The position numbers and the translations under genes were made by a program. The notes under the pieces are model-generated. The model saw nothing but the letters and a program-made list of their open reading frames with translations, was not told the DNA's origin and did not search any database. DNA of 14,720 bases from IMG/VR virus record IMGVR_UViG_2711768072_000014, one strand, 5' to 3'. Source of the stretch: a virus. Taxonomy: Duplodnaviria; Heunggongvirae; Uroviricota; Caudoviricetes. Of this stretch, positions 2,865 through 13,531 are shown one piece after another (positions within the stretch are counted from its first letter, which is position 1; each line of letters opens with the position of its first letter).

Positions 2865-3069
2865 TCTGTCACTTACTGACCTTAACCGCATTCAGTTTCG
2901 TGAGAAATTCACAGGGCAGCTACTGGTCAATGTGGATAAAGGTCGCGTGGTGTGTAATTACCACTTACCAGATGAAGCAATTGTCGCCACAAGGGAATCA
3001 TTACAGGAAATCACAAAACGTGCCGGAATGATTAACACGAATATTCAGGGGATGCTTTATGCACAATAA
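2857..3069 (+). CDS. Hypothetical protein (70 aa)
   Basis: ATG at 2857 with strong AGGAGG Shine-Dalgarno 6 nt upstream. Stop overlaps the next start. Confidence 0.6.
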   Translation: MINLSLTDLNRIQFREKFTGQLLVNVDKGRVVCNYHLPDEAIVATRESLQEITKRAGMINTNIQGMLYAQ

Positions 3070-3298
3070 AACCACACCGGACGCAGCCGCCGAAGCCATC
3101 AAAACGCTGATGCACGCGCTGATTGATATTTCTGTTATCGCGGACAGGGCACATAAGCACGCCACCAGCGAAACAGAATATGCCGGTGCTTTCGTTCCTC
3201 ACTCACTGGCTGTCATGCAATTTAGTGCTGATACGGCGCTGAATGAGGCCAAAGCTATCCTGATTGCTGATTGTGAAAATGGGGGGGGTTATGCGTGA
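3059..3298 (+). CDS. Hypothetical protein (79 aa)
   Basis: ATG at 3059 overlapping the upstream stop; AGGGGA upstream. Translationally coupled arrangement. Confidence 0.55.
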   Translation: MHNKTTPDAAAEAIKTLMHALIDISVIADRAHKHATSETEYAGAFVPHSLAVMQFSADTALNEAKAILIADCENGGGYA

Positions 3299-3524
3299 TG
3301 ATCGTTTTAATTCCCTGAAACAGGAATTTTCCGGCGTTCCTGATGATGCGGCTGATGCGCTTTCGTCAATGCCAGAACTTATTAGAGCGGCTTTTTTCTT
3401 ACTTTCCACGAGAGAATATAAATCAACGGGGCTTGATGTACTGAATATCGCCGCCGATTATGCGGAATATGTGGCAGAGGCGCGTTATAGAAGAAAATTT
3501 CCTGAGGATGTAAGCCATGCGTGA
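3291..3524 (+). CDS. Hypothetical protein (77 aa from ATG 3291; the track ORF begins at 3264 with TTG)
   Basis: ATG at 3291 preceded by a G8 run acting as Shine-Dalgarno and overlapping the upstream stop (ATGCGTGATGA). Start assignment is uncertain. Confidence 0.5.
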   Translation: MRDDRFNSLKQEFSGVPDDAADALSSMPELIRAAFFLLSTREYKSTGLDVLNIAADYAEYVAEARYRRKFPEDVSHA

Positions 3525-3750
3525 TATTTACCACCAAACAATAGACCGCGCATTTCTTGCACTTTCTCACAGTGAAAACATGCTGGAAATATTGCGCATA
3601 TGGCTTGAAACACTTGGCGACAATGAACGCGACAAACAAAAATCAAGAATTGCCACGGCATTAATAACGCTTCTTGAGCCTGTAATAATGGAACTGCAAG
3701 AAATAGATCTATTGCACGACAGATATAAAGAACAGCACACCGGAGAATAA
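3517..3750 (+). CDS. Hypothetical protein (77 aa)
   Basis: ATG at 3517 overlapping the upstream stop; GAGGA 8 nt upstream. Confidence 0.55.
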   Translation: MRDIYHQTIDRAFLALSHSENMLEILRIWLETLGDNERDKQKSRIATALITLLEPVIMELQEIDLLHDRYKEQHTGE

Positions 3751-3755
3751 AAATA

Positions 3756-4055
3756 ATGAAACTTAAATATTCTGGCTTAACTGCCAGTGGCAACACTCAC
3801 CCTAAATTTACGCGCGGTGATATTTACCGCGACCAGTACGGCGGCACGGTAATGATTAAGGGCGTGGCGGGACGGTGCGTAACTTACCGCCGTGAAGGTT
3901 ACGAATATGATTGCGTGATGCCTGTTTATCAGTTCCGGCGTGATTTTTCTCTGGTACAGACCGCGCCGCATAACGTGCCCACCAGCAACGCCAGGGCACG
4001 GGCAAACATCCAGAAGCTGAAAACCATGATTAACGGATTCAGGGGCAAGAAATGA
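3756..4055 (+). CDS. Hypothetical protein (99 aa)
   Basis: ATG at 3756 with GGAGA upstream. Stop overlaps the start of the replication gene (ATGA). Confidence 0.6.
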   Translation: MKLKYSGLTASGNTHPKFTRGDIYRDQYGGTVMIKGVAGRCVTYRREGYEYDCVMPVYQFRRDFSLVQTAPHNVPTSNARARANIQKLKTMINGFRGKK

Positions 4056-5449
4056 AAAGCGCACCGAACTTAAAAAAACAGCCTTACGACAAGATGACCG
4101 AAGTCATCATTTTTGCGGGTAGTGATGCGTGGGCACATGCGAAACAGTGGCAGGAACAGGACGGGCGACTGGCTGGCGATAATGTGCCTCCCATTGTGCT
4201 GGCTGATGATCAACTGGATGAACTGGCAGACCTGAGAATCATCGACGAGGGGCGCTATTGTGTCCGGCTGTACAAGGCAGGCCACATCAGGCCATCAAAT
4301 ATTAATGCCATTGCGCACAAGCTGGCGGCGGCGGGCGTAACTGATGCGAATTATTACCCCGAAGGGATACACAGCCAGAAGCGGGAGAACTGGCGCGAAT
4401 ATCTGGAACGGGAGCGGGGGAAAAAGCCAGGGGAAGAACACCACCAGCGAAAAACCACGCTACCGATGAGCGTTGGATCTGCCGGATACGACACGCAATT
4501 AGATTACGTGGTAAAGGGGATTATTCCGGCATCGTCGCTATGCAGCATATACGGGGCAAGCGGTTCCTATAAATCATTCCTTGCGGGTTCGTGGGCGTGT
4601 CACGTTTCCACGGGCCGCCAGTGGGGAGGCCGCAGGGTGGCGCATGGCGCTGTTCTCTATGTGGTTGGTGAAGGCGGTATCGGCGTTCCGCGTCGTGTAA
4701 AAGCCTGGGAGGTTGTGCACGGTGAGCAGGTGAAAAATCTGTATCTGGTAAACCGTCCAGTTTTTCCGGCTGTCCCGCTTGATGTTGATGAACTGGTTAT
4801 CGCTGCCCGTCAGGTGGAGCGGGAAACGGGTAAACCTGTACGCATGATTATTCTTGATACTCTGGCGCGTTGCTTTGGTGGCAATGATGAAAATGATTCC
4901 CGTGATATGGGGGCGTTTATCCGTGGGTGTGACGAGCTTAAACGGCGCACAGGGGCCACGGTGCTGGTGGTTCACCATTCCGGCAAGGATGAGACGAAAG
5001 GCGCGCGCGGTTCCAGTGCATTTCGTGCTTCGCTGGATGCTGAATACCGGATACGCAGGGAGGACGCAGGAAGCGAAGCGCTGGTTATCTCATGCACCAA
5101 AATGAAGGACGCGGAGGAACTCAAAGAGGCTGCCTATGATTTGCGGGTGGTGGAGCTTTTTACCGACGCTGACGGGGAGTTAATCACGTCGCTGGTGGTG
5201 GTGGATAAGCCGCGCCCTCCCGTTGAACTGGAGCGCATCGAGGAGGCAGGCAACAAGACGGAAAACCATACCGCACTATGGGGGTGCATCCGTTCACGCA
5301 CACAGAACGGCGACAAGTGCACGATCCCGCTGTTACGTGATGACATGAAACGGCTTGGGTATGACGTGAAAAATATGCGGCGATGGTTAGCCAAACTGGA
5401 AAAAGACGCCGTGATTTACATTGATGGTGATGATGTAGGACCACTGTAA
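4052..5449 (+). CDS. Replication protein with RecA-fold ATPase domain (AAA_25 / RepA-DnaB-like helicase type; PICI Pri-Rep-like)
   Basis: 465-aa ORF. Walker A-like YGASGSYKSF, Walker B-like MIILDTL and LVVHHSGKDETKG are arranged as in RecA-fold replicative ATPases of plasmids and satellites. Immediately followed by an iteron cluster. Confidence 0.8.
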   Translation: MKSAPNLKKQPYDKMTEVIIFAGSDAWAHAKQWQEQDGRLAGDNVPPIVLADDQLDELADLRIIDEGRYCVRLYKAGHIRPSNINAIAHKLAAAGVTDANYYPEGIHSQKRENWREYLERERGKKPGEEHHQRKTTLPMSVGSAGYDTQLDYVVKGIIPASSLCSIYGASGSYKSFLAGSWACHVSTGRQWGGRRVAHGAVLYVVGEGGIGVPRRVKAWEVVHGEQVKNLYLVNRPVFPAVPLDVDELVIAARQVERETGKPVRMIILDTLARCFGGNDENDSRDMGAFIRGCDELKRRTGATVLVVHHSGKDETKGARGSSAFRASLDAEYRIRREDAGSEALVISCTKMKDAEELKEAAYDLRVVELFTDADGELITSLVVVDKPRPPVELERIEEAGNKTENHTALWGCIRSRTQNGDKCTIPLLRDDMKRLGYDVKNMRRWLAKLEKDAVIYIDGDDVGPL

Positions 5450-7189: not shown

Positions 7190-8347
7190 ATGCAGAGAAT
7201 AATCGAATTACGCCAGCAGAAAACCGCCATTAAAAATCAGATGCGCGACATGCTGGAGAACGCTGAAAAAGAAAACCGCAGTCTTAACGATGCTGAGGGC
7301 GCAAAATTTGACGAATTACGCGCTAAAGCTGAATCCCTCGATAAAGACATTTCCCGCCTTGAAGCCATTGCAGACGAAGAGCGCAGCAAGCCAGGTAAAA
7401 GCAGCCAGACCACTGACCCCGCAGAACTACGCAGCTACATTCTGACAGGTGAAACCCGCGCATTAAGTACAGGCGTTCCCGCTGATGGTGGTTATACCGT
7501 TATCCCCGAACTGAACACCGAAATCATGCGAATGCTGGCGGATGAATCCACCATGCGCCGCATCTGTACCGTGAAGAAAATCAGCAGCAACGAGTTTAAG
7601 CAGCTTGTTTCCGCTGGCGGTGCGACCGTTAACCACGGTGAAGAGGGTAAGGCACGCGAACAGACCAGCACCCCGCAGATTAACGAGGTGAGCATTAAGC
7701 TGTATCCGGTCTATGCGTACCCGCGCACCACGCAGGAAATCGTGGATTTTTCCGATGTGGACATCCTTTCATGGCTGACGGGCGAGATTGGCGACACCTT
7801 CACGGAAACCGAAGAAAGCGATCTGGTTGTGGGCGACGGTGACAAAAAAGCAAAAGGTTTTTTATCCGTACCCCGTGCAGAGAAGAACGACAAAGAGCGT
7901 GATTTTGGTACGTTGCAGGTAATTAAACCTTCCGAATCTCTGGCGTGGACATCTGCGGACCCGCTGATCGACCTGAAATTTGCATTACGTAAAAAATACC
8001 GCAAAAACGCGGTCTGGGTGGTTAACTCCACGACGGCCGCAAAACTTCAGAAGGTGAAGAACGCGAACGGTGATTACATCTGGCGCGACCGTTTACAGGC
8101 GGGTGATCCTGATACGTTGCTGGGCCTTCCGGTCGAATATCTGGAGTTTATGCCTGATAACGTTATTGCCCTGGGTGACTTCAAACGCGGTTACTACATT
8201 GTTGATCACGAAACAGGTGTTCGCACCAGACCGGACAACCTCACAGAGCCGGGCTTCATCAAAATTTTCACGCAGAAATATTTAGGCGGTGGCGTGGTGG
8301 ATTCGAACGCGATCAAGATTCTGGAACTGCCACAGGACGACGATTAA
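7190..8347 (+). CDS. Major capsid protein, HK97 fold, with N-terminal coiled-coil scaffolding (delta-like) domain
   Basis: 385 aa. The first ~100 residues are charged and helical (ELRQQKTAIKNQMRDMLENAEKE...DKDISRLEAIADEE), as in HK97-type delta domains. The remainder has a typical HK97-family capsid composition. No separate scaffold gene is present. Followed by protease and portal. Confidence 0.88.
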   Translation: MQRIIELRQQKTAIKNQMRDMLENAEKENRSLNDAEGAKFDELRAKAESLDKDISRLEAIADEERSKPGKSSQTTDPAELRSYILTGETRALSTGVPADGGYTVIPELNTEIMRMLADESTMRRICTVKKISSNEFKQLVSAGGATVNHGEEGKAREQTSTPQINEVSIKLYPVYAYPRTTQEIVDFSDVDILSWLTGEIGDTFTETEESDLVVGDGDKKAKGFLSVPRAEKNDKERDFGTLQVIKPSESLAWTSADPLIDLKFALRKKYRKNAVWVVNSTTAAKLQKVKNANGDYIWRDRLQAGDPDTLLGLPVEYLEFMPDNVIALGDFKRGYYIVDHETGVRTRPDNLTEPGFIKIFTQKYLGGGVVDSNAIKILELPQDDD

Positions 8348-8386: not shown

Positions 8387-8959
8387 ATGGGTGAAAAAAT
8401 TATGAAGAGTATGGAAATCCGGTCATCGGAAATCACTACCAGCGGAGCCGGTACGCTGACGGGCTACGTTGTTCGCTGGGATAAGCTTTCAGAACTGCTA
8501 TGGGGGGAGTTTTACGAAAAATTCCAGCGGGGGGCGTTTACTGAGTGGCTTGCGGCGGATAATGACGTTCGCGGCCTGTATGAGCATGACCACAGCATGT
8601 TACTGGGGCGCACCCGTTCCGGCACGCTGAAACTGGAAGAGGACGAAACAGGGTTACGCTTTGAACTGACCCCACCGGATACCAGTACAGGGCGCGACGT
8701 TATCGAACTGGTTAAACGAGGTGATATATCCGGCATGAGCTTTGGCTTTCGTTCCCGTAAGGATGTATGGGATACCACAACAGATCCATGCGTGCGCACC
8801 GTGCTGGTGGCGGAACTGTACGAAATTACCGTTACATCCGTACCGGCTTACCCTGATTCCGGCGTGGAGCTGGCCCGCCGCTCCCTGTACGAGCAGCACC
8901 CCGAAAAAATGCCGCGTGCGGATAATCGCCGCTGGTGGGCGGATTTAGCGGGGGTGTGA
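8387..8959 (+). CDS. Prohead maturation protease, HK97 family (S78-type)
   Basis: 190 aa. Motifs GYVVRWD, YEHDHS, GMSFGF and VPAYPDS parallel HK97 gp4-type prohead proteases (GYAAVFD, WAHD, GLSIGF, FPAN). Start may instead be ATG 8402 or 8411. Confidence 0.85.
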   Translation: MGEKIMKSMEIRSSEITTSGAGTLTGYVVRWDKLSELLWGEFYEKFQRGAFTEWLAADNDVRGLYEHDHSMLLGRTRSGTLKLEEDETGLRFELTPPDTSTGRDVIELVKRGDISGMSFGFRSRKDVWDTTTDPCVRTVLVAELYEITVTSVPAYPDSGVELARRSLYEQHPEKMPRADNRRWWADLAGV

Positions 8960-8960
8960 T

Positions 8961-10172
8961 ATGTGGCCTTTCAGAAGAAAAAAAGAGCAGCGCAGCATGA
9001 CGCTTGATGAGTTTATGGCGCTGGCCGGCACATCGAACACGGGGGCTGGTGAGTACGTATCATCGGGGACAGCGGAATCACTGCCCGCCGTCATGAACGC
9101 CGTCACGGTCATCTCTGAGGCGGTGGCTACCATGCCGTGTTACCTGTACCTGGTACGCAATGAGAAGGGGAAGGAGGCCCGAGAGTGGCTTGATTCTCAT
9201 CCGGTCGATCACATCCTCAACGAGCGCCCGAACGCATGGCAAACCCCCTACCAGTTTAAGCGAATGATGATCCGCCACTGCCTGTTAAACGGTAATGCTT
9301 ACGCGGTGATTCAGTGGGGGCGTGATGGTTTTCCGGCGGCTTTACATCCTTACCCGCCGCAGTCGGTGAACGTGGAGCAGACAGGTGAGCATAACTGGCG
9401 CTATTGCATCACTGACGCCTACACCGGAAACACCCGCAACTATTTACCGTGGGAGGTTCTCCACCTTCGTTACTCCACGGATGACGGTTTTATGGGGCGC
9501 TCACCTGTAACCATCTGCCGCGAATCGCTGGGGCTTGGGCTGGCCCAACAACGCCACGGCGCGAGCGTGATGCGTGATGGCATGATGGCGGCAGGGGTTA
9601 TCACGTCAGGCGAATGGCTGGACGGCGTGAAGGGCAAACAGGCATTAGCCGCACTGGAACGCTACAAAGGGGCCAGAAACGCCGGAAAAACGCCCATCCT
9701 TGAAGGGGGTATGAGCTATCAGCAGCTGGGCATGAGTAATCAGGATGCTGAATGGCTGGCCTCCCGTCGCTTCACCATTGAAGACATCGCCCGAATGTTC
9801 AACGTCTCGCCGATTTTTTTGCAGGAATACAGCAACAGCACCTACAGCAATTTCAGCGAGGCAAGCCGCGCATTTCTCACCATGACGATGCGCCCGTGGC
9901 TGGCGAACTTTGAGCAGCAGATAAAAAACGCCCTGCTGGTGGCCTCACCTGTACCTGGTATCCGGTATCAGGTGGAGTTTGACAGCGCGGACCTGTTACG
10001 GGCCACTCCTGGCGAACGCTTTGCCACCTATGAACGCGGCATCAAATCCGGCGTTATGTGCCCGAACGAAGCCCGCGAACGTGAAGGGCTGTCCCCGCGT
10101 GATGGTGGTGATGAGTTCAGCCAGGCATGGAAACAGGAAGTAAAAATCAGCGAGGGAGAAAAACCGGAATGA
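8961..10172 (+). CDS. Portal protein, HK97 family
   Basis: 403-aa ORF. ATG overlaps the protease stop; GGGGGT Shine-Dalgarno. Size, position between protease and adaptor, and composition fit HK97-type portals. Confidence 0.85.
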   Translation: MWPFRRKKEQRSMTLDEFMALAGTSNTGAGEYVSSGTAESLPAVMNAVTVISEAVATMPCYLYLVRNEKGKEAREWLDSHPVDHILNERPNAWQTPYQFKRMMIRHCLLNGNAYAVIQWGRDGFPAALHPYPPQSVNVEQTGEHNWRYCITDAYTGNTRNYLPWEVLHLRYSTDDGFMGRSPVTICRESLGLGLAQQRHGASVMRDGMMAAGVITSGEWLDGVKGKQALAALERYKGARNAGKTPILEGGMSYQQLGMSNQDAEWLASRRFTIEDIARMFNVSPIFLQEYSNSTYSNFSEASRAFLTMTMRPWLANFEQQIKNALLVASPVPGIRYQVEFDSADLLRATPGERFATYERGIKSGVMCPNEAREREGLSPRDGGDEFSQAWKQEVKISEGEKPE

Positions 10173-10507
10173 ACATAGGGCGACTGCGTGACAGGGTAAC
10201 GATTCAGACCCTGAAACAGACCAGGGATATAACCGGCGAAATACTCGAAACGTGGGTGGACGGTCACACACTCTGGGCAAGCGTGAACATGATCAGCAGC
10301 AAGGAGGCCATTTCATCGGGTGCAGAACTGGCGACTGGAACGGTAAGGATATGGATACGCTACAGGAAGGACATCAACGCCACCAGCCGGATAAAGGTCA
10401 ATACGGGGCCGCTGGCGGGGCGTGTACTGAATATCATCGGGCAGCCGCTGCCGGATGCCGCCAGGACACGCCTTGAAATTCTTTGTCGTGAGGGCGCGGA
10501 AAAATGA
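10169..10507 (+). CDS. Head closure / head-tail joining protein
   Basis: 112 aa from ATG 10169, which overlaps the portal stop (ATGA). N-terminal RLRDRVTIQ...W..VWASV pattern is typical of phage head-tail joining proteins. The track ORF starts at 10127 inside the portal gene. Confidence 0.7.
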   Translation: MNIGRLRDRVTIQTLKQTRDITGEILETWVDGHTLWASVNMISSKEAISSGAELATGTVRIWIRYRKDINATSRIKVNTGPLAGRVLNIIGQPLPDAARTRLEILCREGAEK

Positions 10508-10800
10508 CAGAAGAACTTATCACCCTGGAAGAAGTGAAACTCCATTGCCGCATCGATGGCGACGAGGAAGACCAGTTAATCAGCGGATACATCGCCGCAT
10601 CGCTTGAGGCGTGCCAGATACACATAGGCAGGCGCTTTGATGACGGGCTGGAGTTCACGCCAGCCATAAAGATTGGCTGCATGATGTTTATCGCTCACCT
10701 GTATGAAAATCGCCAGATTGTCGCGGATAACGCAAAAACACGCGTACCCATGACGATTGGTGCACTCTGGACGGCTTACCGTGATGTGGGGGTGTACTGA
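10504..10800 (+). CDS. Head-tail connector protein, gp6-like
   Basis: 98 aa. N-terminal LITLEEVKLHCRIDGDEEDQLISGYIAAS resembles gp6-like connector proteins (L.LEE.K.HLRID...D.LI). ATG overlaps the upstream stop. Confidence 0.7.
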   Translation: MTEELITLEEVKLHCRIDGDEEDQLISGYIAASLEACQIHIGRRFDDGLEFTPAIKIGCMMFIAHLYENRQIVADNAKTRVPMTIGALWTAYRDVGVY

Positions 10801-11240
10801 TGCCGTGGCAACCATTAAGACGATGCACAGAACCAGGCTGTAACAGGCGCGTGAAGTCCGGCAAGTGTGAGGAGCACAGGCGGGCGGCATGGCGTGCAGA
10901 GGATGCCAGACGAGGACACCGCCGCGCGCGTGGGTACTCCAGACAGTGGGACAAATACCGCGCCATGTATCTGAGTAAAAACCCGTTATGCGTGCGATGC
11001 CTTGAGAAGGGGATATATACGCCCGCCGTGGTGGTGGATCACATTATCCCGATTAATGGCGGTGATGATGTTCTCTTCTGGCCCGAATGGAACCATCAGC
11101 CATTGTGCCAGGCGTGCCATAACCAGAAAACGAAATGGCTTGATCCGGCAACAAAAAGCAAGCGTGCCGCAGGTGGATTTCGTGAAGAGGAAGAACGGGC
11201 CGCTAACCGCAATAACTGGATGTATGACGCTGATGAATGA
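10800..11240 (+). CDS. HNH endonuclease (packaging-associated)
   Basis: 146 aa. CxxC...CxxC zinc-binding cysteines and VDHIIPINGG...NHQPLCQACHNQKT match the HNH motif (DH..P....N.Q.LC..CH..K). Located immediately upstream of terS as in HK97-like cos phages. Confidence 0.9.
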   Translation: MPWQPLRRCTEPGCNRRVKSGKCEEHRRAAWRAEDARRGHRRARGYSRQWDKYRAMYLSKNPLCVRCLEKGIYTPAVVVDHIIPINGGDDVLFWPEWNHQPLCQACHNQKTKWLDPATKSKRAAGGFREEEERAANRNNWMYDADE

Positions 11241-11406
11241 GCGGGAACAAAACCGCCTTATCCGTGGACTTATAAGGCAGCGTGACGCATGGAAGACACA
11301 GGAAACAGGGCATAAAGATAAAGCGTCAGGACGCGCAGAACGCATCACAGCGAAGCGATTAACCGACCGTGACTGCGAGGTTATGGAATGTTTCCGCAAT
11401 CGCTGA

Positions 11407-11529
11407 TGAGGCTGTATGACGGGGTGGGGGGCGTTTTCAGGACAAACCCGACCCCGCCGGGCACCGACCGCCTCCTCAAATTTTTATGCACGGGAATTTT
11501 TTGAAAAATAATCTGGCGAAAAAATAAGC
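11407..11529. other. Candidate cos / packaging-recognition region between HNH and terS
   Basis: 123-bp intergenic region with G/C-rich runs (GGGGTGGGGGGCG at 11421-11433; CCCGACCCCGCCGGGCACCGACCGCC at 11447-11472) followed by an AT-rich stretch. This is the position where HK97-like cos phages carry cos. Confidence 0.35.
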
Positions 11530-11886
11530 ATGGCAAGACCACCGAAAGCCCCCGCCTACCTGGATGATATCGCCGTGAAGCAGTGGCGGGAAAAATCGCG
11601 GCAGCTTGCGGAACGGGGAGACCTTACCCCCGCCGACTGGAGTAATCTGGAACTGTATTGTGTCAACTACTCCATTTACCGGAAAGCCGTTGCAGACCTT
11701 GCGGCGCGCGGGTTCAGCATTGTTAACAGTCAGGGCGGCGAGAGCAGAAACCCCGCATTAAGCGCAAAATCCGACGCTGAAAGAGTGATGATAAAAATGG
11801 CCTCTTTGCTCGGTTTTGACCCGATAAGCCGCCGTAAAAATCCACCGGAAACAGAAGAAGAGGACGAGCTTGACCGCCTGGAATAA
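11530..11886 (+). CDS. terS: Terminase small subunit, P27 family
   Basis: 118 aa. Pattern W...LAERGDLTPADWSNLELYCVNYSIYRKA...LGFDPISRRK is typical of P27-family small terminases. Directly precedes and overlaps the large terminase. Confidence 0.85.
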   Translation: MARPPKAPAYLDDIAVKQWREKSRQLAERGDLTPADWSNLELYCVNYSIYRKAVADLAARGFSIVNSQGGESRNPALSAKSDAERVMIKMASLLGFDPISRRKNPPETEEEDELDRLE

Positions 11887-13531
11887 GTACGCAGAAGACG
11901 TAAAAACGGGCAAAATTCCGGCCTGTAAACGGCTGAAACAGGCCGTTAAACGGTACTTTTCGGACCTTGAAAGCCCCCTTTACACGTTCGATCGTGAGGT
12001 TGTGGAGCGGTTTATTGCCTTTTCCAGGGTGTGCCCGCACGTAAAAGGCGCAATGCGCGGTAGCCCCATTGAGCTGGAGCCGTGGCAGCAGTTCGCCTTT
12101 GCGTGCATCCTCGGCTTTAAGGTTAAGGCCACCGGACGGCGCAAATACACGAGCGCCTTTATCGAAGTGCCGCGCAAAAATGCGAAATCCACGACCGCCG
12201 CGATTCTGGCTAACTGGTTTTTGATTATGGAGAACGGTCAGCAGGATATCTACACCGCAGCGGTGAGCCGTGACCAGGCGCGGATCGTCTTTGATGATGC
12301 GCGTCAGATGTGCCTTTTATCCCGACCGTTACGCAGGCGGGTGAATATTCAGGCGCATAAGGTGATACACCCGAAAAGCAACAGCCTGTTAAAGCCGCTG
12401 GCAGCAAAAGCGGCAACCATTGAAGGTACAAACCCGAGTCTTGCCATTGTGGATGAATATCACCTGCACCCTGACAACGGGGTTTATTCCGCGCTTGAAC
12501 TGGGAATGGGGGCGCGTCCGGAGGGGCTGTTATTTGCCATCACCACATCGGGGAGCAACGTTGTTTCAGCCTGTAAACAACACTACGACTATTGCTGCCA
12601 GATACTGGATGGTGAAGAGGTGAACGAATCCATGTTCGTGCTGATTTACGAGCTGGATGATGAAAGCGAGGTTGACGATCCGGCGATGTGGATAAAGGCG
12701 AATCCCAATATCGATGTTTCCGTCGATCGTGAAAAACTGGCCTCAACCATCCAGAAAGCGCGGGGAATACCGTCGCAGTGGGTGGAGATGATGACAAAGC
12801 GATTTAATATCTGGTGCCAGGGGGCTACCCCGTGGATGGGTAACGGCGCATGGGCTGAGTGTGCCGGAACGTTCACGGAGGAAGATTTACACGGCCAGGA
12901 GTGTTACGCGGGGCTGGATTTATCATCAACCAGCGATATTTCCAGCGTATGCTATGCCTTTCCGGTCGGTAAAACCATTATGCTGATTTCCCGTCATTAT
13001 CTGCCGGAGTTCCAGCTACAGAACCCCGCCAATAAAAACCGCGCTGTCTATCGTCAGTGGGCTAAAGCGGGCTGGATACGCACAACGCCTGGCGACTGCA
13101 TTGATTACGACCGGATCAGAGATGACATCATGCAGGACGCGGAGAAATTTCATATCAGGCTGGTGGGCTTTGATACGTGGAACGCCACGCATCTCAGAAC
13201 GCAATTACAGGGGGCAGGTTTTGAGGTGGAGCCGTTCCCGCAAACCTACCTCAGATTCAGTCCGGCGGCGAAATCGTTCGAAGTTTTTGTTAACCGCAGG
13301 GTGATTGTGCATCGTGGCGATCCGGTGTTGTCCTGGTCGATGAGTAACGTCGTGATGCAGAGTGACGCGAACGCCAATATCAAGCCGAACAAGAAAAAAT
13401 CACCGAACAAGATAGACCCGAGCGTAGCGGCGCTGATGGCGTTTGGTACATTCCAGGCAGAGCATGAGGATTTTGCTTTTGATATAAGCGACAGCCACCG
13501 CCAGAAACTGGAAGAATTTAGCGGGGTGTAA
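11870..13531 (+). CDS. terL: Terminase large subunit (ATPase plus nuclease domains)
   Basis: 553 aa. Walker A-like VPRKNAKSTTAA in the N-terminal ATPase region, acidic motifs (IVDEYH) and a C-terminal nuclease-like region. TTG start at 11870 preceded by GAGGA, overlapping terS. Confidence 0.9.
   Translation: MTAWNKYAEDVKTGKIPACKRLKQAVKRYFSDLESPLYTFDREVVERFIAFSRVCPHVKGAMRGSPIELEPWQQFAFACILGFKVKATGRRKYTSAFIEVPRKNAKSTTAAILANWFLIMENGQQDIYTAAVSRDQARIVFDDARQMCLLSRPLRRRVNIQAHKVIHPKSNSLLKPLAAKAATIEGTNPSLAIVDEYHLHPDNGVYSALELGMGARPEGLLFAITTSGSNVVSACKQHYDYCCQILDGEEVNESMFVLIYELDDESEVDDPAMWIKANPNIDVSVDREKLASTIQKARGIPSQWVEMMTKRFNIWCQGATPWMGNGAWAECAGTFTEEDLHGQECYAGLDLSSTSDISSVCYAFPVGKTIMLISRHYLPEFQLQNPANKNRAVYRQWAKAGWIRTTPGDCIDYDRIRDDIMQDAEKFHIRLVGFDTWNATHLRTQLQGAGFEVEPFPQTYLRFSPAAKSFEVFVNRRVIVHRGDPVLSWSMSNVVMQSDANANIKPNKKKSPNKIDPSVAALMAFGTFQAEHEDFAFDISDSHRQKLEEFSGV

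Follow-up and report, generated by a model that had tools for sequence, protein, structure and literature searches.

A probable cohesive-end site between the HNH and terS genes of a capsid-forming phage-inducible chromosomal island

The window analyzed in this work is the whole of a 14,720-nucleotide (nt) stretch of viral DNA (IMG/VR record IMGVR_UViG_2711768072_000014). It is a capsid-forming phage-inducible chromosomal island (cf-PICI): its Pfam matches and gene order agree with the published definition of these satellites, the check for tail genes having covered part of the remaining open reading frames (ORFs). Where does such an island carry the site at which its DNA is cut for packaging? 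We conclude that the spacer at positions 11407–11529, which separates the gene for an HNH endonuclease and a small ORF from terS, is very probably its cohesive-end site (cos), of the HNH-dependent type found in phages HK97 and Gamma. A preliminary description of this DNA had placed a candidate cos between the HNH gene and terS. Four independent lines of evidence support that location for the family: synteny, deep conservation, contig breaks in relatives, and collinearity with the sites mapped in HK97 and Gamma. We infer from its sequence that the window’s own copy is cut like those of its relatives.

The cf-PICIs are recently described, very widespread satellites that make capsids of their own and package no DNA but theirs. 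As defined, they carry an integrase, replication and regulation genes, a capsid-protease-portal-connector set and hnh-terS-terL, lack tail and lysis genes, and span 10–18 kb (10.1101/2022.09.08.507074; 10.1101/2025.02.11.637232). By Pfam matches and ORFs, the window encodes an integrase, capsid, protease, portal, head completion protein, connector, HNH, TerS and TerL. The HNH-TerS-TerL trio on which the preliminary description relied is borne out by matches to PF01844, PF05119 and PF03354/PF20441, respectively, and the spacer sits between the HNH gene and the terS-terL genes of the PF03354/PF20441 terminase clade, as it does in HNH-associated 3'-cos systems. The window’s TerL (large terminase, ATPase plus nuclease; 11870–13531, + strand, PF03354 and PF20441) is 27% identical to HK97 gp2 (E = 4e-47). 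Its nearest phage counterparts are those of phi105, Gamma/WBeta, phiKO2 and BiPBO1 (33–36% identity), and the records of these phages begin shortly upstream of terS. The HNH endonuclease, a packaging accessory nuclease (10800–11240, + strand; PF01844, E = 1.8e-8), shares 39% identity with HK97 gp74 (E = 2e-19) and 35% across 118 residues with the HNH protein of Bacillus phage Gamma (E = 5e-14). The terS gene itself (11530–11886, + strand) encodes a P27-family small terminase (PF05119, E = 1.3e-23).

The spacer of 123 base pairs (bp) had been described as the only intergenic DNA in this neighborhood, and its coordinates were right. Its composition is split: the first 69 bp (11407–11475) are 70% G+C, and the remaining 54 bp (11476–11529) are 28%. 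Two features had been singled out previously, a G-rich run (GGGGTGGGGGGCG, 11421–11433) and a C-rich run (CCCGACCCCGCCGGGCACCGACCGCC, 11447–11472). Both are present, and the G run and the second half of the C run are conserved, but the first half of the C run proved to be a variable spacer (CCCGACCCCGCCGGG, 11447–11461) with about 40% identity across lineages and no conserved columns. The best-conserved part of the region, which went unmentioned, is its A/T-rich half, CTCAAATTTTTATGCACGG..ATTTTTTGAAAAATA (11475–11511). Taken on its own, the window makes a weak case against chance: GGGGNGGGGG occurs in it once versus 0.13 times expected, and at least one match was found in 23 of 200 shuffled sequences. 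The G run is thus uncompelling on the window alone; the weight of the evidence comes from the comparison with relatives.

That comparison resolves the spacer into an element (11421–11511) with several parts. At its left is the G box GGGGTGGGGGGCGTTTT (11421–11437, + strand), which is unique in the window and whose G run ends at −44 relative to the predicted top-strand cut. The predicted bottom-strand nick follows the variable spacer and falls between 11464 and 11465 (site 11462–11466; CAC/CG, slashes marking cuts, with ACCGR on the top strand and YCG^GT on the bottom); contig ends and the specificity of the Gamma HNH protein point to this position. Next comes the predicted cohesive end, a 10-nt 3' overhang with the sequence CGACCGCCTC (11465–11474, + strand), assigned from the 10 nt missing in a relative’s contig and from alignment with the Gamma and HK97 ends. 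The putative top-strand nick (11474/11475) opens the left-end core CTCAAATTTTTATGCACGG (11475–11493, + strand), at which the contig of a relative begins. Lastly, a GC cluster plus A-tract, GCACGGGAATTTTTTGAAAAATAA (11488–11511, + strand; +14 to +37), is a candidate TerS recognition site by analogy to the mapped site of HK97. We also observed that the sequence after the G box (11434–11450, TTTTCAGGACAAA) and that after the A-tract (11491–11507, TTTTGAAAAATAA) form a 71% complementary inverted repeat and are also alike on one strand; a pair of related protein sites is one possible explanation, plain A/T-rich quasi-palindromes another.

Loci of relatives were gathered both by TerS protein and by DNA patterns. 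They came from E. coli, Klebsiella, Enterobacter, Citrobacter, Kluyvera, Kosakonia, Pantoea, Erwinia, Rahnella, Serratia, Pectobacterium, Aeromonas and many Pasteurellaceae. A non-coding element of about 92 bp, corresponding to 11421–11511, is retained in 34 lineages of three orders, in 225 distinct variants. Its consensus reads, in order, a G box GGGTGGGGG..GTTT(T), about 10 semi-conserved bases, about 15 variable bases, ACC.CCC.CC(C)C, and CTCAAATTTTTA.GCA.GG..ATTTTTT.GAAAATA. Conserved columns fall at 11422–11430, 11433–11437, 11444–11446, 11463–11473, 11476–11493, 11496–11502 and 11504–11511. The first two of these blocks, which make up the G box, are at least 75–90% conserved over the 34 lineages. 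In the conserved ACC.CC.CC (11463–11473), the ACC is invariant in the family, and the AC before the 10-mer, together with the spacing of 10, is kept in nearly all of the 225 variants. Within E. coli, 700 bp around the spacer are present in 513 of 5,426 complete genomes, chromosomal in all and with the same annotation.

The degree of constraint was gauged by the mean identity to the window over 19 lineages. The G box (85%), A/T-rich core (83%) and C box (73%) all exceed the third codon positions of terS (45%, and 28–36% in Pasteurellaceae); the variable spacer has 40%, and the 15 bp after the core (11512–11526) are the least conserved, at 33%. Thus, the three non-coding blocks are more tightly constrained than the gene beside them. 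The distance between the element and the ATG of terS ranges from 44 to 255 bp, with insertions in some Pasteurellaceae, which argues that the element is independent of the translation signals of terS. Otherwise near-identical E. coli copies (loci L006, L020 and L033) differ by 1–3 nt in their G run (window 11426–11431), which has 5 to 8 G, and HK97 and HK106 have 9 and 10 G, respectively. The run is a slippage-prone homopolymer that varies inside a functional site, and its exact length is therefore apparently tolerated.

Two relatives have contigs with ends inside the element. One is vB_KppS-Ant (LR881103; locus L001), a cf-PICI contig of 16,548 bp that corresponds to KpCIDSM30104 of 10.1101/2025.02.11.637232. 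K. pneumoniae DSM 30104 was the host on which the phage preparation was grown; the Nextera XT reads were assembled with SPAdes, and the paper mentions no re-orientation of the contig (PMC8006926). The gene order is terS, terL, ..., int, ..., capsid, ..., HNH; int lies inside the permuted contig and so does the attachment junction, which puts the break between HNH and terS. Its two arms match the chromosome of K. pneumoniae ATCC 13883 with 0 mismatches over 2,409 and 2,876 bp. We treat ATCC 13883 and DSM 30104 as one strain. Between the arms the contig lacks exactly 69 bases of the chromosome, equivalent to 11444–11512 of the window. Tagmentation does not recover some tens of bases at the end of a linear molecule, and the 69-bp gap is thus what such a physical end would produce; a circular or concatemeric template would give overlapping contig ends. 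As to the record itself, its title reads “Escherichia phage”, and PMC8006926 calls it a filamentous single-stranded DNA prophage; it carries capsid, portal and terminase genes, and a 765-residue ORF after terL is annotated as a tail tape measure protein.

The other contig, IMGVR_UViG_3300022664_000095, holds a complete cf-PICI within its 15,518 bp, with the genes in the packaged order terS...int...HNH. Its terS is at 61, terL at 401–2059, int at 3219–4427, the capsid gene from 11232, HNH at 14872–15309 and the small ORF at 15308–15457; TerS, TerL and portal are 80–83% identical to those of the window. Base 1 of the left end (L272) begins CTCAAATTTTTACGCACGG (CTCAAATTT...), and the right end (L173) reads ...GTTTTCAGGACAAAACCCAAGCCGCAAGGCAC, the last bases being GGCAC. 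In integrated relatives, exactly 10 bases stand between GGCAC and CTCAAA (CACCCGCCCC, CGCCCGCCCC and similar; CGACCGCCTC in the window), and these 10 bases are missing from the contig. No terminal direct repeat of at least 5 nt was found in it. End repair trims 3' overhangs and fills in 5' overhangs. A 10-nt 3' cohesive end would hence lose its 10-mer and gain no duplication, as seen here, provided that the metagenome library was made with end repair. The filled-in terminal direct repeat expected of a lambda-type 5'-cos does not appear in this contig. Likewise, the contigs of the two relatives do not have the form expected of headful (pac) packaging: their ends are defined, lie in both cases within the 92-bp element, and show no redundancy.

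About 400 copies of the element, including 42 bulk-metagenome contigs, served as a control set. No other contig among them starts at the left core, and a scan of IMG/VR for E. coli-type left ends yielded 96 loci, none with a contig start at the site. Ends within 40 nt of the G box occur in only four loci of the roughly 400: that of vB_KppS-Ant, the right end L173, an E. coli isolate contig (L150), and L109, whose end is that of an internal slice and not of its contig. With so few ends near the G box, the site is no systematic breaker of assemblies.

Among phages, a detailed likeness is to Gamma, in whose record (NC_007458) the cohesive end CGCCGCCCC is written at both termini. The concatemer junction of Gamma would thus read GTAC/CGCCGCCCC/CTCAACTTCG, and its AC/CGCCGCCCC/CTCAAC nearly equals the cf-PICI consensus CAC/CGCCCGCCCC/CTCAAATTT (AC/CGCCCGCCCC/CTCAAA). 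Gamma also has an upstream G box at a similar distance, a P27-family TerS, and an HNH protein that is homologous over its full length (35%). That protein, N.phiGamma, is a strand-specific nickase with the specificity AC^CGR / YCG^GT (PMC8845596, citing Xu and Gupta 2013). At the predicted bottom-strand cut the window reads CAC/CGA, an ACCGR-type sequence like Gamma’s. Unlike the island, Gamma (a Wbetavirus) is a complete phage of a Gram-positive host; its cohesive end has 9 nt rather than 10, and its flanks differ past CTCAA. A literature search for the string CGCCGCCCC returned unrelated papers only. Another resemblance runs through HK97, Gamma, phiKO2 and the window: the upstream G box is similar to the reverse complement of the cohesive end (11421–11430 with 11465–11474 in the window; in Gamma, GGGGCGGG versus the reverse complement GGGGCGGCG). 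The site thus holds an imperfect inverted repeat with its halves about 35 bp apart, of which we found no mention in the cos literature searched.

The ends of HK97 are 10-nt 3' overhangs (PMC9410871, PMC11331095), and its TerS binds +15 to +29, CTAACCCGATTTTTT, reading a C:G pair at +21 plus the adjoining A-tract (PMC11331095, PMC9410871). The cos cores of HK97 and HK106 are identical. With 11474/11475 set on the HK97 cut and positions −60 to +40 compared without gaps, 40 of 100 positions match, against a background of 24.9 ± 4.4; a score of 40 is reached at 29 of 29,240 window positions (p about 0.001). The Klebsiella element gives 43 of 100, and the best registers to HK97 are −2 to +1. The G run ends at −43 in HK97 and −44 in the window, CCCG-A-T7 at +19 to +30 has its counterpart in CGGG-AA-T6 at +17 to +28, and terS starts at +50 and +56, respectively. 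Both sites are flanked by HNH and terS, the 10-nt 3' overhang of HK97 and the one predicted for the window are C-rich on the top strand, and the TerL and HNH proteins are homologous. The layout of G box, C-rich overhang and A-tract site is hence collinear with mapped HNH-associated 3'-cos sites, and by place and make-up 11488–11511 is a candidate for a TerS site like that of HK97. The two differ in the overhang (CGCCGCCAAA in HK97 versus CGACCGCCTC, equal at 4 of 10 positions), in the sequence of the TerS site, and in TerS itself, which is of another sequence family: BLAST detected no similarity between the window’s TerS and HK97 gp1. The latter has no Pfam family, and the TerS proteins of the window, Gamma and phiKO2 share PF05119.

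Two further phage sites extend the comparison. In the Klebsiella phage phiKO2, TerS is of the P27 family, the G box (GGGGGTAGGGGGG) ends at −44, and the 10 terminal nt follow GGAC, but the overhang (TGCCGCTTCA) and left-end sequence are unrelated to those of the window. Lambda cos (cosQ-cosN-cosB) is similarly built of an upstream signal, a nick site, and a downstream terminase-binding site with bent or A/T-rich DNA towards terS. It differs in that its overhang is 5' and HNH is not needed; here, the contig evidence fits a 3' overhang. Lambda’s overhang has 12 nt and its terminase belongs to a different family. In PMC9410871 the 5' overhang is printed as 10 nt. A side observation concerns the left-end core, which in Pasteurellaceae is AATCAAATTTTTA (e.g., 2080–2095 of L210). 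It perfectly matches what we take to be the IHF consensus, WATCAANNNNTTR; enterobacterial copies, including the window’s CCTCAAATTTTTA, fit TCAANNNNTTR only. A host bending protein may take part, by analogy to lambda cos.

How might the site work? After excision and replication of the island, its TerS would bind the GC-cluster/A-tract site at 11488–11511, about 14–37 bp past the cut on its right side. The next step would be a pair of staggered nicks by TerL and HNH, one in the bottom strand at 11464/11465 (CAC/CG) and one in the top strand at 11474/11475 (CTC/CTCAAA), leaving the 10-nt 3' overhang CGACCGCCTC. HNH would nick the bottom strand and TerL the top, with the reverse assignment also possible; for HK97, the authors left open which enzyme cuts which strand (PMC11331095). 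Packaging would run rightwards, terS first, into the small capsid made by the satellite, and would end at the next cos. Some 44 bp upstream of the cut, on the last-entering end, the G box may aid termination; by analogy to lambda cosQ, it can reasonably be guessed to signal this step.

Could the spacer serve another purpose? Its A/T-rich half lies immediately upstream of the terS ATG, and the region might hold nothing but expression signals for that gene (promoter, terminator, ribosome-binding), with cos elsewhere. We regard this as very improbable: a scan of the spacer found no promoter-like site on the + strand and no terminator-like site, the conserved blocks stop at 11511 and the 18 bp nearest the ATG are the least conserved (33%), some Pasteurellaceae have 174–255 bp inserted between an intact element and terS, and the virion-DNA contig and the metagenome contig of relatives break here and nowhere else. 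Hardly credible is the proposal that the spacer encodes an N-terminal extension of TerS, as automatic calls (often of 165 residues) would have it. Dozens of database proteins of 155–169 residues do reach upstream of the 118-residue TerS; however, an in-frame TAA at 11509–11511 shuts the frame in the window, the lengths of the G run and A run vary by single bases among near-identical E. coli copies, the conservation lacks three-base periodicity, and the NCBI annotation and most lineages have a TerS of 117–118 residues. The 155–169-residue calls (P0005–P0063; an E. coli group of 89% identity) read through the cos element, and the extended TerS is very probably an artefact that arises where this subgroup lacks the in-frame stop. 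A structured RNA or a DNA hairpin (an attenuator or processing site) formed by the G box and C box, in place of a protein-recognized cos, would account for the pairing that RNAalifold predicts between the G box and the cohesive-end C box (8 pairs, −8.9 kcal/mol) and for a 10-nt inverted repeat in the window (11420–11429 with 11447–11456). Such a structure is highly unlikely, in that no pair shows a compensatory change (covariation term −0.11), the window-specific repeat lies in non-conserved spacer, and the hairpin leaves the contig ends unexplained. Rfam gave no match at E ≤ 1, and with no covariation-supported structure either, the element does not fall in a known RNA family. The hairpin of 11420–11429 with 11447–11456 was also tried as a candidate feature in its own right and set aside, as it is not conserved across lineages. 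A direct repeat (CACCGACCGCCTCC / CACCGAAAGCCCCC), whose second copy lies in terS codons, was likewise dropped: 61 variant pairs showed no covariation, and the repeat is explained by C-rich Pro/Ala coding sequence.

Several points weigh against the assignment of cos to this spacer, or against its details. The evidence on termini comes from relatives, a point for headful packaging or a cut site elsewhere in the island. We nonetheless give that alternative a very low probability: TerL falls in the clade of the 3'-cos phages HK97, phi105, Gamma and phiKO2, the HNH gene adjoins terS, the ends of the complete linear contig are defined and show a 10-nt gap with no terminal redundancy, and the Klebsiella relative is reported to form concatemers through cohesive ends (10.1101/2025.02.11.637232). 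As for the cos itself, its base-level map rests mainly on one metagenome contig (library type unknown), plus a Klebsiella contig with a 69-bp loss, plus homology. The E. coli isolate contig L150 ends ...GGGCACC, 1 nt past the predicted position, although this could be an accident of assembly. Many relatives have ACCA instead of ACCG at the site. Which strand HNH cuts, and which TerL, we assign provisionally after the example of Gamma. Our AlphaFold model of TerS (28 sequences) had a predicted local distance difference test score (pLDDT) of 59, too poor for comparison with the HK97 TerS fold. Finally, an unanchored gapped alignment to HK97 cos was weakly significant (z of 2.7; 22 of 2,000 shuffles), and it was for this reason replaced by the nick-anchored comparison.

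Is the satellite’s cos distinct from that of its helper? The preliminary description had reasoned that, if so, the satellite’s terminase would package only satellite DNA, and it suggested a comparison with the helper cos. We made this comparison with HK97/HK106 standing for the helper; HK106 is the helper used for EcCIEDL933, a published cf-PICI. The HK97/HK106 cos core has no match anywhere in the window. Conversely, a search for the element in 50,697 phage records turned up no genuine phage, and only cf-PICI-like records (the ECO95 contig, Pmp7 and Pmp8). With overhangs equal at 4 of 10 positions, satellite and helper ends could not anneal. At the level of sequence, then, the two sites are distinct (core absent, overhangs diverged, TerS unrelated), but they are not different in kind: since the satellite site, with its predicted C-rich 10-nt 3' overhang, shares the architecture of G box, overhang and A-tract site with the helper’s, they are better viewed as diverged versions.

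Published genetics point the same way. Transfer of the PICI requires the PICI’s HNH, TerS and TerL and not the phage’s, and the reverse is true for the phage (10.1101/2022.09.08.507074). The cf-PICI DNA of the Klebsiella relative forms concatemers via cohesive ends (10.1101/2025.02.11.637232), and for both EcCIEDL933 and KpCIDSM30104, induction by a helper is followed by packaging into small capsids with the satellite’s own machinery (10.1101/2025.02.11.637232; 10.1101/2022.09.08.507074). The absence of the helper core and the divergence of overhang and TerS agree with these reports, which supports the idea of an own cos. Because the helper’s cos sequence, overhang and TerS family differ, each terminase would cut its own DNA only. 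Satellites such as P4 and SaPIbov5, which borrow the helper cos, and the Rpp PICIs, which retarget the helper TerS, also let a satellite-borne cos decide packaging (10.1101/2022.09.08.507074). They differ from the window, whose cos is matched to its own HNH-TerS-TerL and in which the helper cos is absent.

A broader reading is tentative, and we think it rather unlikely. The G box and the AC/C-rich 9–10-mer/CTCAA would be one ancient nicking module, common to the HNH-terminase systems of Bacillus phages and of phages and satellites of proteobacteria; the adjacent TerS site alone would determine packaging specificity, and the G box, as an imperfect inverted copy of the cohesive end, would be a termination signal like lambda cosQ. 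Were this true, swapping the TerS site of about 25 bp would suffice to retarget packaging between helper and satellite, and the near-invariant cf-PICI cos would help identical cf-PICIs to move between genera.

In the literature searched, which comprised preprint-stage texts (final journal versions fell outside the search), cos packaging of cf-PICIs is stated, and the site is neither located nor described. New here are the base-level prediction, the extent of the conservation across three orders, and a core nearly identical to that of a Bacillus phage. The prediction (3' end at 11465–11474, TerS site at 11488–11511, G box at 11421–11437) makes exclusive packaging directly testable. The element is also a compact sequence marker with which to find cf-PICIs and orient their genomes, and it defines a fragment for cos plasmids to be mobilized by cf-PICI particles. 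The general understanding of cos packaging is unchanged, as the site is a typical HNH-associated 3'-cos.

The rest of the assigned genes lie upstream of the spacer: integrase (1–1218), major capsid (7190–8347), prohead protease (8387–8959), portal (8961–10172), head completion (10127–10507) and head-tail connector (10504–10800). The small conserved ORF between HNH and the cos region (11233–11406, + strand) encodes 57 residues and has no Pfam family. Its start overlaps the HNH stop (ATGAATGA), it ends at the edge of the cos region, and it is labeled hypothetical in E. coli genomes. Homologues occur in the Klebsiella element and in IMGVR_UViG_3300022664_000095 (40% identity in the latter), and the ORF is conserved in enterobacterial cf-PICIs; none was found in Pasteurella elements. 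Mutation of “hypothetical gene 1792” severely reduced the transfer of EcCIEDL933 (10.1101/2022.09.08.507074). The 57-residue ORF might be that gene.

Three groups of loci among the relatives were unusual. One assembly, Pasteurellaceae bacterium Macca (L233–L240 and L250), has at least nine separate loci with TerS and the cos element, unusually many for a satellite, and in most of them an insertion of about 230 bp separates the cos element from terS. In Shigella flexneri CP182556.1 (L212), terS is cut off at residue 8 and there is no cos core upstream; the locus looks decayed. The 106.5-kb record of Klebsiella phage P12620-1 (PQ569648.1, L002) contains a cf-PICI terS-terL pair with a TerL of 82% identity. 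Around 2990–3000 of this record, unrelated sequence joins the second codon of terS and the cos element is absent upstream; the record may be a chimeric assembly or a recombinant.

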